A DNA stretch of 34,128 nucleotides from Candidatus Omnitrophica bacterium 4484_171 (GTDB taxonomy: Bacteria; Omnitrophota; Gorgyraeia; Duberdicusellales; 4484-171), in assembly GCA_002049895.1 (NCBI GenBank), contig MVCW01000001.1, forward strand, positions 1 through 34,128. The letters run 5' to 3'. Shown one piece after another: positions 8,975 through 13,893 of the stretch; positions within the stretch are counted from its first letter, which is position 1, and the number at the start of each line of letters is the position of its first letter. The notes under the pieces were generated by a model. The model did no database searches. It was given only the letters and a program-made list of their open reading frames with translations, and was not told where the DNA came from. Position numbers and translations under genes: made by a program.

Positions 8975-9715
8975 ATGATGCAAAGGGATGTTCACTTAAC
9001 AGCTAAAGATTTACTGAATCATCTTCAGTTTAAAGAAGGCGATTTCGGCAAAGTTGCCATTATAAGCGGCCAGCCTCAGCGGGCAAAAATGTGCCTTGAT
9101 TATTTAGAAAAACCAGTTAAAAACTTTACATTTTTAGGCTATACTTTCTGGACCGGCGTTTATAAAGGTAAAAAAGTTACTGTAGGTAACGGCGGTTTTT
9201 ATTCTCCGGATTCAGCCTTTGTTACCGAACTTATATGTAATGCCGGTGCAGATACTTTAATTCGGCTTGGTTCCTGCGGGTCTTTAAGAGAGGATATAAA
9301 TATTGGCGATTTTATTATAGCGGATAAAATTTTAAGAGGTGACGGGGCGGCGCGTTATTATGTTGACGATGCGTTTTCTCCTTCCGTAGATAAAGATTTA
9401 TCCGATAAACTCAGCAATATATTTAGCAGTGTAGGCACGGTTTATAAAGGAGGCGTTTGGACAACAGATGCCTTATTTCGCGAAACAAAAGAGATAGTTA
9501 ATCCTTATATAGAAAAAGGCGCTATTGCGGTTGATATGGTTACTTCTCCTTTTGTTACAGTTTCCAACCTGTATAAGAAACAGGTGGCTGCTATTTTAGT
9601 TGTCTCGGACAATCTTATAACAGGCCGGCTTGGGTTTTCTGATTTTAAATTGTTTGAGGCACAGGAGAAAATGGTTAAAACCATATTTCAAATAACCGAA
9701 GAGTCAGATGTTTAA
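8975..9715 (+). CDS. Nucleoside phosphorylase, PNP/UDP family 1 (candidate 5'-deoxyadenosine/MTA phosphorylase)
   Basis: Family motifs are SGQPQRAK, GNGGFYSPDSAF, LIRLGSCGSL, IGDFIIAD and VDMVTS. Substrate specificity cannot be read from the sequence. Confidence 0.75.
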   Translation: MMQRDVHLTAKDLLNHLQFKEGDFGKVAIISGQPQRAKMCLDYLEKPVKNFTFLGYTFWTGVYKGKKVTVGNGGFYSPDSAFVTELICNAGADTLIRLGSCGSLREDINIGDFIIADKILRGDGAARYYVDDAFSPSVDKDLSDKLSNIFSSVGTVYKGGVWTTDALFRETKEIVNPYIEKGAIAVDMVTSPFVTVSNLYKKQVAAILVVSDNLITGRLGFSDFKLFEAQEKMVKTIFQITEESDV

Positions 9716-10631
9716 TTCACCCCTTTTATTTCCTGTTAGATTAAAGGATAGCAAAATGGTTGTCTTAGACGAAACTCTGCTTCCCTTTAGAGAGCAATAT
9801 ATAGAAGTAGAGGATTTAGATAAGGCTTTGTGGGTTTTGGGGAGTATGAAAACCCGCGCTTTCGGGCAGGTGCTTTTGTTTTTCTATTCCTGCTGTCTGT
9901 TTAAAAATTATTCTATCGGTGAAATAGCAGAGAAATTCAGCAAAGCGCGGCCGACTTTTGATTTCTCCCTTTTAGGAGATATTTTAGAAAGCAAAAAAGA
10001 AAACGGCTTAAGCATAGAGACGGCAGTTAAAGGGTTTATCGATAGTTTTGACAGTTTAAGAAGGAATCGGGCAAAGAAGTTAGCCGGGATTCTTTCCCAT
10101 CCGGCTAAAATACTTACGGTCTGCAACGTCAACGGGGAGATGATTTATTTATACGGGGCGCTAAAGGAATTAGGAAAAGACGCAGTGTTTTATGTTTCAG
10201 AAACCCGGCCTTATCTTCAAGGGACACGCCTTACTTTCTGGGAGCTGAGGAAGAACAATATTCCGGCATACTTAATATGCGATAACCAGGCCGCGAGCTT
10301 AATGAAAGAAGGTAAGGTGAATTGTGTTGTAACCGGCGCCGACCGCGCAAGCAAAAGAGGAGGCATAGTTAATAAAATCGGTACGTATCCGCTTGCTGTC
10401 TTAGCAAAGTATTTCAACGTACCTTTTTATCCTCTTATTCAATACCCAAAAAATATCGATATAAGAGATATTGAAATAGAGGAACGTCCCGGTATTGAGG
10501 CGTTTATGTTTTTAGAAGGTGATTTTTCTTCTATTGACGCGGTCTATCCGTCTTTTGATGTGGTTGAGAATAAGTTTATTACCGGGTGTATAGATTTAAT
10601 GTGCAGTGAAAATGAGGTTGAAAGAACTTGA
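9708..10631 (+). CDS. mtnA: S-methyl-5-thioribose-1-phosphate / 5-deoxyribose-1-phosphate isomerase (IF-2B family, MtnA-like)
   Basis: Motifs are VVLDETLLP, ILTVCNVNG (catalytic Cys region), SETRPYLQGTRLTFWEL and VVTGADRASKRGGIVNKIGTY (catalytic Asp region). It overlaps the phosphorylase stop by 8 nt. Confidence 0.8.
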   Translation: MFNSPLLFPVRLKDSKMVVLDETLLPFREQYIEVEDLDKALWVLGSMKTRAFGQVLLFFYSCCLFKNYSIGEIAEKFSKARPTFDFSLLGDILESKKENGLSIETAVKGFIDSFDSLRRNRAKKLAGILSHPAKILTVCNVNGEMIYLYGALKELGKDAVFYVSETRPYLQGTRLTFWELRKNNIPAYLICDNQAASLMKEGKVNCVVTGADRASKRGGIVNKIGTYPLAVLAKYFNVPFYPLIQYPKNIDIRDIEIEERPGIEAFMFLEGDFSSIDAVYPSFDVVENKFITGCIDLMCSENEVERT

Positions 10632-11079
10632 TAATTTAATATTAATCTGGGGAGTTTTGTCCAAAGAGAGTTTGGGATTGCTCAAAGAAGAAACAGTGCT
10701 CGTTCCGGAAAATCGGCCGTTTCTCTACGGTTTGAAACACAATATCCCTTTGCTTAGGGAGAATAATATCTCTTTTGTATATTGTACGGATAATATGATA
10801 GGACATCTTTTTTATAGAAATAAAATAAAAAAGACATACCTCTTTTATAAGGAGAAAACAGAAAAGGGATTAATAGGCCCCTGCGGCAGTCTGTATGCCG
10901 GCCTGTTAAGCAGATTACACGGCGTTAAAGTAGATGCTTTTTTAGGTGCAAGGGTTAACTTCGACAACATAGACCAGGATGTGTCTACTTTGTTAGGCAG
11001 AGAGTTTATACTTTTTAAAGATAAAGAGCGGGCAGAAAATGGGTCAGATGAGTTAATTAACGCGGAGGTTTTATTATGA
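10606..11079 (+). CDS. Short IF-2B/MtnA-family paralog (C-terminal Rossmann-like half only)
   Basis: VPENRPFLYGLKHNIPLLRENNISFVYCTDN...GLIGPCGSLYAGLLSRLHGVKV aligns with SETRPYLQGTRLTFWELRKNNIPAYLICDN...GIVNKIGTYPLAVLAKYFNVPF of the preceding ORF. It has no Cys-containing N-terminal half, and GADR is replaced by YKEK. Confidence 0.6.
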   Translation: MKMRLKELDNLILIWGVLSKESLGLLKEETVLVPENRPFLYGLKHNIPLLRENNISFVYCTDNMIGHLFYRNKIKKTYLFYKEKTEKGLIGPCGSLYAGLLSRLHGVKVDAFLGARVNFDNIDQDVSTLLGREFILFKDKERAENGSDELINAEVLL

Positions 11080-12092: not shown

Positions 12093-12459
12093 AGAGTGCA
12101 GGATGCAGTAAAAAACTCTTATCCCGCAGCTCATAGAAAAATATAAATAGCGTATAGCGGTTAGCGGTTAGTTAGGAAGTTGTCCCCTCGGGGCTTTGAG
12201 TTTGCGAGTTAAGGCTTGCGAAATTAGAAGAAATTTATAGAAGAAGTTCATTGAAATTAGTCCTTCGGACGAAATCTGTTTCACTGAAATTAATTGCAGC
12301 AATAAATCCCTGTAAGGTTCATCTGAGGGATATATTTAACGAATGAAGTGGGTATAGTATGATGCTTGCGAAGCTGCGGATACGGCATCCTTCGTCCAAG
12401 CGAGCGGACATCTTGCGTCCAAACTATGATTTCGTGACTATTATTATTCAGGAGGGATT

Positions 12460-13893
12460 ATGGAAGAATACGGGTATTACGTAGGTGGTGAATTTAGGAA
12501 AGGTAAGGAAAGAATAGAAGTTATAAATCCCGCGGCAGAAGAAGTTTTTGCTTATATTTTTGAAACAAATAAGAAAGACCTTGATTTTTCAATAGATAAA
12601 GCCGTAAGCGCTCAGCGCGAATGGAGAGAAGTTAATTTCAAGGAAAGAGCCAGAGTCTTAAGAGGGATTTCCGCTGTAATTTTAGATAATCTTTCCCGTT
12701 TAGCAGAGCTTGAAACGAAAGAAATCGGTAAGCCTCTTAAGGAATCACTTTTTGTAGATATACCTTTAGCGGCGCAGTGTTTTGATTATTATGCCTCATT
12801 TATAGAGTCTTTAGAGGCGAAAACGTTCCGTACAGATACCGGTATTGATTTCATCAAATATGAACCGTATGGGGTATGTGCGGTTTATATTCCTTATAAT
12901 GTGCCTTTGATGATTTTTGGGTTTAGTTGTGCCGCTGCTTTAGCTGCCGGAAACAGCTTAATTATTAAACCTTCTGAGTTTGGTTCAGTATCCGTTTTAG
13001 AGCTCGCAAAATATATAGATAAGCTGAATATCCCTAAGGGGTTGATAAATGTTGTTACAGGTAAAGGTGAAGAAACAGGAAAATATTTAGCCAAAAGCAA
13101 AATTGATATTATTTCTTTTACCGGTTCAAGAAATACGCTTAAAAAAGTAGTTTCTTCTACTAAAGATACTCCTAAAAAGATTATATGTGAGTTAGGAGGC
13201 GCCAACTTAACGGTTGTTTTCCGTGATGCTGATAAAGACGCCGCGATAGAGAATATATTGGGTTCTTCTTTTATGAAACAGGGGCAGATGTGTATAGGAA
13301 CAAGCATCGCTCTTATTGAAGATGAAATCTACGATGAATTCCTGAAAGCGCTTTTGCAAAAAACAAAAAATATAGAAACAGGAGACCCTTTTGATGCTGC
13401 TTCCGGTATGGGCCCGCTTGTTACGAAGGGCCACCTTAATTCTATAGACACGCACGTAAAGGATGTTTTAAAAAAAGGAGGAAGGCTGCTTGCGGGCGGC
13501 GAGGCCATAAAACGAAGAGGATATTTTTATACCCCTACGGTTATAGAAATAAAAGATATGATTTATGATGAATTCTTTGCTCCGGTACTTATGGTAAAAA
13601 GTTTTAGAGAAAGCGAGATAGAGAGCTTAGTTGAAAATAATCCAACAGGGCTGGTTCTTCAGGTCTGGTCAAAGAATTTAGCCAAAGCTCAAAGATTAGC
13701 TGACATTGCCTCTTGCGGCACGGTTTGGATTAATACATTTGCTCAAATGAGCCCCCAGACTCCTTTTGGCGGCGCAAAGTTAAGCGGCTGGGGCAGAAAT
13801 TTAGGAAGCGCGGGTTTTTTTGAATATGTCCAGGCTAAACACATAGGGATAGGATTGGCCAAGAGCCCGGTTGAGGGGTGGTTTGGTATATAA
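12460..13893 (+). CDS. NAD(P)-dependent aldehyde dehydrogenase
   Basis: ALDH motifs are IPYNVPL, FTGSRNT, ELGGAN (catalytic Glu), QGQMCIGTS (catalytic Cys) and PFGGAKLSGWGR. SD AGGAGGG lies upstream. Confidence 0.9.
   Translation: MEEYGYYVGGEFRKGKERIEVINPAAEEVFAYIFETNKKDLDFSIDKAVSAQREWREVNFKERARVLRGISAVILDNLSRLAELETKEIGKPLKESLFVDIPLAAQCFDYYASFIESLEAKTFRTDTGIDFIKYEPYGVCAVYIPYNVPLMIFGFSCAAALAAGNSLIIKPSEFGSVSVLELAKYIDKLNIPKGLINVVTGKGEETGKYLAKSKIDIISFTGSRNTLKKVVSSTKDTPKKIICELGGANLTVVFRDADKDAAIENILGSSFMKQGQMCIGTSIALIEDEIYDEFLKALLQKTKNIETGDPFDAASGMGPLVTKGHLNSIDTHVKDVLKKGGRLLAGGEAIKRRGYFYTPTVIEIKDMIYDEFFAPVLMVKSFRESEIESLVENNPTGLVLQVWSKNLAKAQRLADIASCGTVWINTFAQMSPQTPFGGAKLSGWGRNLGSAGFFEYVQAKHIGIGLAKSPVEGWFGI

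Follow-up and report, generated by a model that had tools for sequence, protein, structure and literature searches.

A conserved variant of the DHAP shunt within a radical-SAM lipid/polyketide cluster of the Omnitrophota

Why do three enzymes of a nucleoside salvage route and an aldehyde dehydrogenase (ALDH) stand directly behind a radical S-adenosylmethionine (SAM) gene, in a locus that had been taken for a biosynthetic one? The question is raised by positions 8,975 to 13,893 of a 34,128-nt stretch, referred to here as the window, which opens contig MVCW01000001.1 in the metagenome-assembled genome (MAG) of Candidatus Omnitrophica bacterium 4484_171 (GCA_002049895.1). A preliminary description of this DNA had read the genes as a salvage module of the dihydroxyacetone phosphate (DHAP) shunt type that recycles the radical SAM by-product. 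We find the module to be real and conserved, an as yet uncharacterised form of the DHAP shunt or 5-deoxyribose disposal pathway that belongs to a radical-SAM lipid/polyketide cluster. Its genes are dedicated paralogs, separate from the housekeeping methylthioadenosine (MTA) phosphorylase (MTAP) and MtnA, and they are inherited together with the radical SAM, lipid/polyketide and export genes. The predicted chemistry, running from a nucleoside over a sugar-1-phosphate and a ketose-1-phosphate to DHAP plus an aldehyde and finally to an acid, is well supported. For the substrate, 5'-deoxyadenosine is our tentative first choice. The genes and domains concerned are the following.

5819-7324, +, acyl-CoA/AMP ligase (ACS), 501 aa; outside the module as first described, but within the conserved one
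7396-8865, +, B12-binding radical SAM enzyme, BchE/HpnJ-like, 489 aa
8975-9715, +, phosphorylase PNP2, a hexameric-type purine nucleoside phosphorylase (PNP) paralog, 246 aa
9708-10631, +, MtnA/DrdI-like isomerase (IF2B2), a divergent IF-2B/MtnA-like protein, 307 aa
10606-11079, +, p157, truncated paralog of the IF-2B C-domain, 157 aa
11076-12092, +, class II aldolase, whole gene, 338 aa
11076-11648, +, class II (Zn) aldolase domain, residues 1-191
11649-11705, +, interdomain linker of aldolase-SCP2, residues 192-210, predicted disordered
11706-12092, +, SCP2 domain of the aldolase, predicted to bind lipid, residues 211-338
12093-12459, no strand, non-coding gap from aldolase to ALDH, 367 nt, with small GC hairpins and no plus-strand open reading frame (ORF) of at least 80 aa
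12460-13893, +, ALDH, 477 aa (Aldedh, 423 bits in Pfam)

Enzymes of the module

The phosphorylase, isomerase, aldolase and ALDH frames all lie on the plus strand where the preliminary description had placed them, and Pfam and NCBIfam confirm their families. The three gene overlaps that it reported are exact in a base-by-base check. The isomerase ATG at 9708 starts 8 nt inside the phosphorylase gene, whose TAA occupies 9713-9715; p157 starts with GTG 10606 (or ATG 10612), 26 (20) nt inside the isomerase gene; and an ATGA at 11076-11079 couples the p157 frame to the aldolase. Three details had to be amended. The overlap that opens 10606-11079 is real, but the frame is a separate truncated IF-2B paralog and no part of the isomerase. 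The radical SAM gene is indeed directly upstream, but the gap measures 109 nt instead of 110. The ALDH does follow the aldolase, but it is not translationally coupled, with the 367-nt gap in between. The statement that the window holds no methionine-salvage genes is borne out: enolase-phosphatase, the acireductone dioxygenase ARD and RuBisCO-like proteins were not found among its ORFs of at least 100 aa.

The phosphorylase matches PNP_UDP_1 with 117 bits in Pfam. It stays below the NCBIfam cut-offs of the DeoD type (105 bits against 230), of HpnG (37.6 against 187) and of MTAP (18.8 against 274.85), and is thus no MTAP equivalog. Among solved structures it comes nearest to the hexameric Sulfolobus MTA phosphorylase (1JDS, 97 bits). 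It shares with solved PNPs and with this MTAP, at aligned positions, the catalytic Asp (SDN) as well as the Arg and Ser that bind phosphate, and it retains the His by which E. coli PNP contacts O5'. We propose PNP2 as the candidate for step 1, in which a 5'-substituted adenosine and phosphate would give adenine and a sugar-1-phosphate. An identity as MqnB or futalosine hydrolase was considered and discarded, since none of the 14 NCBIfam families listed for PNP2 (E <= 0.001) is such a model.

The isomerase scores 121 bits as an IF-2B/MtnA-like protein in Pfam and 151 bits against the MtnA model TIGR00512, whose cut-off is 279. An alignment of 21 sequences, comprising 20 cluster copies from across the phylum and the canonical MtnA of the same genome, shows C139 (TxCN), D212 (GxD) and the phosphate ligands R50, RPT 81-83, Q171 and K223 to be invariant. 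The cluster isomerases differ from canonical MtnA in that RGAPxIG is replaced by RAFGQ, the CN motif is directly followed by a five-residue deletion and the N-domain is shortened in one segment. The p157 protein is a weak IF-2B match (19.8 bits in Pfam) that aligns to the C-terminal domain of MtnA without the catalytic Cys or Asp; its frame is found in 22 of the 52 loci compared below. A complex prediction places p157 on the C-domain face of the isomerase with a score of 0.93, the best control reaching 0.00; when the tool was calibrated, 58 of 80 solved complexes attained this mark, as did 2 of 110 mismatched pairs. Dimers of MtnA and of the eIF2B family have already been solved, and the pass may mirror likeness to those structures. 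The prediction runs have at least 97% of contacts in common, with a partner predicted local distance difference test (pLDDT) value of at least 89. This modelling supports an isomerase-p157 heterodimer without demonstrating binding.

The class II aldolase domain (Aldolase_II, 120 bits in Pfam) retains E74, H93, H95 and H154, the equivalents of FucA E73, H92, H94 and H155, which are invariant in 41 homologs. Foldseek gives template modelling (TM) scores, normalised by target, of 0.86 to Thermus FucA and of 0.81-0.83 to DrdA, the 5-deoxyribulose-1-phosphate aldolase (6BTD and 6BTG). By phmmer, its scores to several proteins are similar (aq_1979 64.8 bits, YgbL 57.7, FucA 53.9 and DrdA 52.3). As the preliminary description had assumed, the protein is no MtnB equivalog: it reaches 58.2 bits in TIGR03328 and 60.2 in NF006672 against cut-offs of 137.05 and 226, and it lies under all other NCBIfam equivalog cut-offs as well.

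The aldolase carries a second domain at its C-terminus. Pfam detects SCP2 there with 21.9 bits against a cut-off of 21.3, and precomputed PF02036 matches are found on most homologs. The AlphaFold2 model of the domain has a pLDDT of 89.8. Its best matches in the PDB are the Thermus SCP2 structures 1WFR and 2CX7 (TM by query 0.82); next come the C-domains of alkylsulfatases, UbiJ-SCP2 and the SCP-2L domain of MFE-2. The TM by query to SCP2 clusters of the ESM Atlas is 0.87. Mean column identity within the domain is 74% over 26 sequences. The linker residues 192-210 have a pLDDT below 50, and a fold search with the whole protein returned matches to the aldolase domain only. By these models the C-terminus is a genuine SCP2 fold, for which lipid binding is predicted. 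SCP2 domains also occur in the SCPx thiolase, in MFE-2, in the alkylsulfatases SdsA1 and Pisa1 and in UbiJ/UbiT, where they hold out a hydrophobic ligand to a catalytic partner or on its behalf. We know of no described case of SCP2 fused to a sugar-phosphate aldolase. At the DNA level the linker (11649-11705) is rich in CACAAG-type words, with short matches to octamer repeats at 2783-2855 in a secretin gene.

The ALDH has both the general-base Glu (ELGG) and the nucleophilic Cys (GQMC) and is therefore of the hydrolytic, non-acylating type. We propose it as the candidate for step 4, oxidising an aldehyde to a carboxylate with NAD(P)+. From a hydrolytic ALDH we infer a flow from aldehyde to acid, which counts against a reverse, synthetic use of the aldolase. 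With their catalytic residues intact, all four enzymes look active.

The two genes upstream belong to the same unit. The radical SAM protein (7396-8865) contains Radical_SAM and B12-binding domains in Pfam, with CPAGCKFC (CxxxCxxC) at residues 209-216; it scores 217 bits against BchE, where the cut-off is 481, and stays under every equivalog cut-off in NCBIfam. The ligase matches AMP-binding with 288 bits (Pfam), its top NCBIfam match is long-chain-fatty-acid--CoA ligase with 435 bits, and its nearest solved relatives are luciferase, 4-coumarate-CoA ligase (4CL) and fatty-acyl-CoA synthetases.

A cluster shared across the phylum

The aldolase is matched in 90 of 301 sampled Omnitrophota genomes (~30%), always as one copy, and ~79 of the matches span both domains. 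A pattern search for the fusion returned 201 loci among GTDB species representatives, so that this uncultured phylum has the cluster in ~200 of its species-level genomes; no cultured carrier is among the 80 listed of these 201 loci, all of which are uncultured MAGs. For synteny, we compared 52 loci with the full-length fusion over 10 kb on either side, several absences being due to contig ends. The genes found within this distance of the fusion are as follows.

isomerase paralog: 48 of 52 loci
ALDH: 48 of 52
PNP2: 44 of 52
B12-binding radical SAM ortholog: 43 of 52
ligase: 39 of 52, in most loci adjoining PNP2
acyl carrier protein (ACP): 34 of 52
PF04199 cyclase: 34 of 52
ketosynthase/chain length factor (KS/CLF): 30 of 52
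Amidohydro_2: 26 of 52
SRPBCC cyclase: 25 of 52
ketoreductase (KR): 25 of 52
MMPL, LolA-like and DUF1302 genes: 11 of 52, adjacent, mainly in the window's own order
DeoC-type aldolase with Zn alcohol dehydrogenase: 8 of 52

Gene orders are interleaved. The radical SAM gene lies between isomerase and p157 in L042 and L043 and between KS and ACP in many loci. The cluster behaves as one functional unit and not as a chance neighbourhood, and the cassette belongs firmly to a cluster, conserved throughout the phylum, that contains the B12-binding radical SAM enzyme, the ligase, often KS/CLF, ACP and cyclases, and sometimes an exporter. The suggestion that a by-product cassette is embedded in a biosynthetic locus is upheld as far as the embedding goes, by synteny conserved across the phylum, and in part only for the disposal role. 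The product of the cluster is probably an exported lipid or aromatic polyketide.

The lineage of the window has the short form of the cluster, consisting of ligase, radical SAM enzyme, module and exporter. KS/CLF, cyclase and SRPBCC genes were not found in its MAG by tblastn, and ligase and module are kept. The genes that follow the module form a lipid export set, assigned by Pfam and NCBIfam.

13980-16343, +, MMPL/HAE3 transporter, 787 aa
16387-17265, +, LolA-like/DUF1329 protein, 292 aa
17434-18864, +, DUF1302 outer-membrane protein, 476 aa

Three genomes depart from the common composition. G300 (97% complete; L045, C4:20800-40700) has only PNP2 and aldolase-SCP2, in housekeeping surroundings beside lptC/lptB, trigger factor and clpP, with no isomerase paralog, no ortholog of the cluster radical SAM gene, no ALDH and no ligase; its only MtnA is a canonical one elsewhere. 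This shows that PNP2 and aldolase can function as a pair where the cluster is absent and the isomerase is a standard one. G247 has the module without the isomerase paralog. G269 (L081, C1:215000-234900) carries ligase, PNP and a 191-aa aldolase without SCP2, followed by MMPL, LolA-like and DUF1302 genes.

Further variation concerns the neighbours of the module. A DeoC-type class I aldolase and a Zn alcohol dehydrogenase (for example L095:10982-12812) stand in several loci beside or between aldolase-SCP2 and ALDH, a hint that the aldehyde product is further elaborated in those lineages. Loci L001 and L002 had suggested that Amidohydro_2 and Aminotran_4 proteins replace the phosphorylase; this was rejected, as many loci carry Amidohydro_2 in addition to PNP2. 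In G059 and G135, PNP2 is present as well, a little beyond the stretch examined at first. Many MAGs placed in the window's family or order (L105, L106, L108 and others) are titled 'uncultured Planctomycetia/Planctomycetales bacterium', and the record of one fusion-bearing contig names a Methanosarcinales archaeon; both kinds of title are probably labelling or binning errors.

The MAG of the window comprises 1.27 Mb in 108 contigs and is 86.9% complete, so that gene absences in it are not proof. The cluster copies are the only PNP_UDP_1 and the only Aldolase_II genes found in it. Aldolase_II is likewise single in four of five near-complete relatives, G216 having a second weak match inside a 657-aa ORF. 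A second, canonical MtnA (421.6 bits, cut-off 279) is encoded on contig C75, flanked by TatD nuclease and PAS histidine kinase genes. Relatives, too, carry a canonical MtnA besides the cluster copies, and between proC and ileS they encode a bona fide MTAP (313.7 and 300.8 bits, cut-off 274.85). This proC-MTAP-ileS block is wholly absent from the MAG of the window. Because the essential ileS is missing with it, the lack of MTAP is most likely an assembly gap, and other absences in this MAG need careful reading. ARD (mtnD) was not found in this genome, RuBisCO-like or RuBisCO_large proteins (mtnW) not in it and 12 relatives, and enolase-phosphatase (MtnC) and MTR kinase (MtnK) not in it and 6 relatives. 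With mtnC, mtnD and mtnW not found outside the window either, a complete canonical methionine salvage pathway is not seen in this incomplete MAG.

The same genome has 32 Radical_SAM domain matches within its 1.27 Mb, 29 of them above cut-off; it is unusually rich in such enzymes and thus has a real need for 5'-deoxyadenosine disposal. Seven such matches are crowded into ~8 kb at C63:10302-18569, within open frames of 779, 1427 and 914 aa that may represent multi-domain or fused radical SAM proteins.

Substrate and role of the route

Enzyme order and catalytic residues fit the DHAP-shunt salvage of the preliminary description, and sequence does not decide between the small by-product that it named and a greasier substrate. 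We favour dedicated disposal of 5'-deoxyadenosine by a phosphorylase-started DHAP shunt of the 5-deoxyribose-disposal type, extended by an ALDH, and place its probability just short of even. PNP2 would phosphorolyse the 5'-deoxy-nucleoside to adenine and 5-deoxyribose-1-phosphate. The MtnA-like isomerase, probably as a heterodimer with the catalytically dead p157, would convert this to the ribulose-1-phosphate, which the Zn aldolase would split into DHAP and an aldehyde. The hydrolytic ALDH would then oxidise the aldehyde to the acid, and the neighbouring ligase may turn the acid into a thioester. The likeliest substrate would be 5'-deoxyadenosine, perhaps also MTA, with adenine, DHAP and acetate or acetyl-CoA as products; the sources of 5'-deoxyadenosine would be the co-inherited B12-binding radical SAM enzyme and the ~30 further radical SAM enzymes that this small genome encodes. 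S-adenosylhomocysteine is unlikely as a substrate, since AhcY is present in the genome.

Characterised 5-deoxyribose disposal uses paralogs of the kinase or phosphorylase and of the isomerase in genomes that also keep the methionine-salvage copies, and a phosphorylase-started variant was predicted by Beaudoin et al. 2018 (PMC6079011). Paralogy was at first held to be an argument against salvage. This was dropped, since the Drd enzymes are likewise paralogs of salvage enzymes (PMC6079011), and a separate MTAP and MtnA do not argue against disposal. Similar to the DHAP shunt with DrdK or a phosphorylase, DrdI or MtnA, and DrdA or Ald2 (PMC6079011; for E. coli PMC10986504), the module has intact catalytic residues and consists of paralogs of salvage enzymes kept elsewhere, while the rest of methionine salvage is not found. 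It differs in the SCP2-fused aldolase, in a diverged isomerase (151 bits against 279) with a predicted dead partner, in the extension by ALDH and acyl-CoA ligase, and in being fixed in a cluster with a B12-binding radical SAM enzyme, genes resembling a polyketide synthase (PKS) and an exporter instead of forming a stand-alone salvage operon. If disposal is the role, this would be the first known complete disposal route hard-wired into a radical-SAM biosynthetic cluster, and SCP2 would have an unsuspected function.

Several points weigh against disposal. It leaves unexplained why an enzyme that acts on a small, soluble sugar phosphate should carry a conserved SCP2 domain. The module is limited to ~30% of the sampled genomes, namely those with the cluster; four of five genomes checked that lack the module still have canonical MtnA. 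By its sequence matches the ligase belongs to the 4CL/fatty-acyl (aryl or fatty-acid) class and is no acetyl-CoA synthetase, and making acetyl-CoA from acetaldehyde by a hydrolytic ALDH and an AMP-forming ligase would be costly. The isomerase is remodelled phylum-wide next to the catalytic Cys and in an N-domain motif, and it has a predicted dead partner subunit. To our knowledge, no other radical-SAM biosynthetic cluster has its own disposal cassette.

Most of these features would find a place if the module trimmed a lipophilic adenosyl adduct on-pathway, which we regard as possible, if rather unlikely. The radical SAM enzyme would attach 5'-deoxyadenosyl to a greasy acceptor, as HpnH does with hopene and MqnE in the futalosine route. 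PNP2, isomerase and aldolase would pare away the ribose, so that C5' and C4' stay on the acceptor as -CH2-CHO, ALDH and ligase would give -CH2-COOH and its thioester, and the product would be exported; SCP2 would hold the greasy part. The genuine and strongly conserved SCP2 domain on the aldolase is consistent with this, as are the fatty/aryl class of the ligase, the tight and interleaved linkage with the B12-binding radical SAM enzyme, PKS-like genes and lipid exporter (as in L042 and L043) and an isomerase that is remodelled near its active site yet keeps all phosphate ligands. There is precedent in HpnG, a PNP homolog that removes adenine from adenosylhopane (PMC13459092). In the hopanoid (HpnH, HpnG) and futalosine (MqnE, MqnB) routes alike, a PNP_UDP_1 enzyme strips adenine from a lipophilic or aromatic intermediate that has been adenosylated. 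Neighbouring genes for an HpnJ-like B12-binding radical SAM protein and an HpnN-like RND exporter are a further shared trait, whereas the isomerase and aldolase that follow here are in neither known route.

A link to hopanoids themselves is ruled out: in this genome and 12 relatives HpnH has no match above cut-off (best in the own genome 49 bits against 225), and no squalene-hopene cyclase (SQHop_cyclase) is found in these 13 genomes, which also counts against an adduct. B12-type radical SAM enzymes abstract hydrogen, with methyl transfer or rearrangement. Adenosylation lies outside this known chemistry, and the sole radical SAM enzyme of the cluster is of the B12 type. The exceptional genomes pull in the same direction, as G300 keeps PNP2 and aldolase-SCP2 without the cluster radical SAM gene, isomerase paralog, ALDH and ligase, G247 does without a dedicated isomerase and the G269 version has no SCP2. 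That the module is specifically a C2-grafting device, leaving an activated and exported -CH2-CHO or -CH2-COOH handle where 5'-deoxyadenosyl had been placed on a lipophilic acceptor and its ribose trimmed, we consider distinctly unlikely. It would be the third route, after hopanoids and futalosine, to build the ribose of SAM into a lipid or aromatic product, and the first use of DHAP-shunt enzymes on a greasy substrate. A lipophilic adduct would in any case mean new specificities for three well-known enzyme families and a new logic for the two-carbon extension of lipids or polyketides. Whatever the role, the SCP2-fused aldolase and the isomerase with its dead paralog lend themselves to direct tests in vitro.

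The same order of enzymes could serve to supply a building block, with 5'-X-5'-deoxyadenosine (X = H, SCH3 or OH) giving X-CH2-COOH that the ligase activates as a starter for KS/CLF/ACP; this we hold to be improbable. It has a model in the fluoroacetate/4-fluorothreonine pathway of Streptomyces cattleya and Nocardia brasiliensis, with FlA, FlB, a 5-fluoro-5-deoxyribose-1-phosphate (5-FDRP) isomerase, an aldolase and fluoroacetaldehyde dehydrogenase (PMC3999930; PMC6079011). The four steps from 5'-X-5'-deoxyadenosine over X-acetaldehyde to X-acetate are in the same order there and serve biosynthesis, not salvage. The ligase next to PNP2 in most loci, the PKS-like genes in 30-34 of 52 loci and the DeoC-type aldolase with Zn alcohol dehydrogenase in 8, which suggests use of the aldehyde, would agree with such a role. 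The lineage of the window, however, has module and ligase with no KS/CLF, cyclase or SRPBCC gene found, and with X = H the product is plain acetate, for which no special route is needed. SCP2 is again left unexplained. FlB is MTAP-like and PNP2 is DeoD-like, and no fluorinase or chlorinase is present here. A start of the halogenase or fluoroacetate type was rejected: the sole SAM_HAT (DUF62) gene (C69:2935-3714) reaches 65.9 bits in the fluorinase model, whose cut-off is 400, and has no linkage to the cluster. It is nearest to (R)-S-adenosyl-L-methionine hydrolase (176.6 bits, under the cut-off of 350) and has a housekeeping context between pyruvate kinase and ttcA, with CoaB also nearby.

Catabolism of ordinary nucleosides is very improbable. 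Adenosine or inosine would pass over ribose-1-phosphate and ribulose-1-phosphate to DHAP and glycolaldehyde and on to glycolate, for carbon and energy. The DeoD-like character of PNP2 with its O5'-contacting His would suit this, and a ribulose-1-phosphate aldolase family exists (NF053831), but the aldolase reaches 49 bits in that model, far under the cut-off of 300. The strict linkage to a radical SAM and lipid cluster would be unexpected, and we know of no isomerase of the MtnA-like kind that turns ribose-1-phosphate into ribulose-1-phosphate. Canonical methionine salvage with the aldolase-family protein as MtnB dehydratase is largely refuted and keeps next to no probability: the canonical MtnA in the genome and matches of 58-60 bits to the MtnB models speak for it, but the latter stay under the cut-off of 137, searches for ARD in the own genome, and for RuBisCO-like protein, enolase-phosphatase and MTR kinase in it and in relatives, found none of them, and an ALDH after the aldolase fits an aldehyde product.

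Elements between the genes

The intergenic stretches hold several features of their own. Between radical SAM gene and phosphorylase, a palindromic element containing CACAGATG words takes up the gap (8866-8974), with a small hairpin at 8890-8904. It leaves free a good Shine-Dalgarno site (GGGAG) that precedes the phosphorylase ATG at 8975. The gap of 12093-12459 lies within an otherwise tightly packed operon and contains GC hairpins, for example at 12182-12194. A promoter internal to the operon, a site of processing or the decayed remains of a repeat element could be located in it. Behind the ALDH, a perfect GC-rich palindrome, CGGACGTTGGACGTCCG, occupies 13897-13913; it begins 4 nt past the stop codon and has no T-tract on the plus strand.

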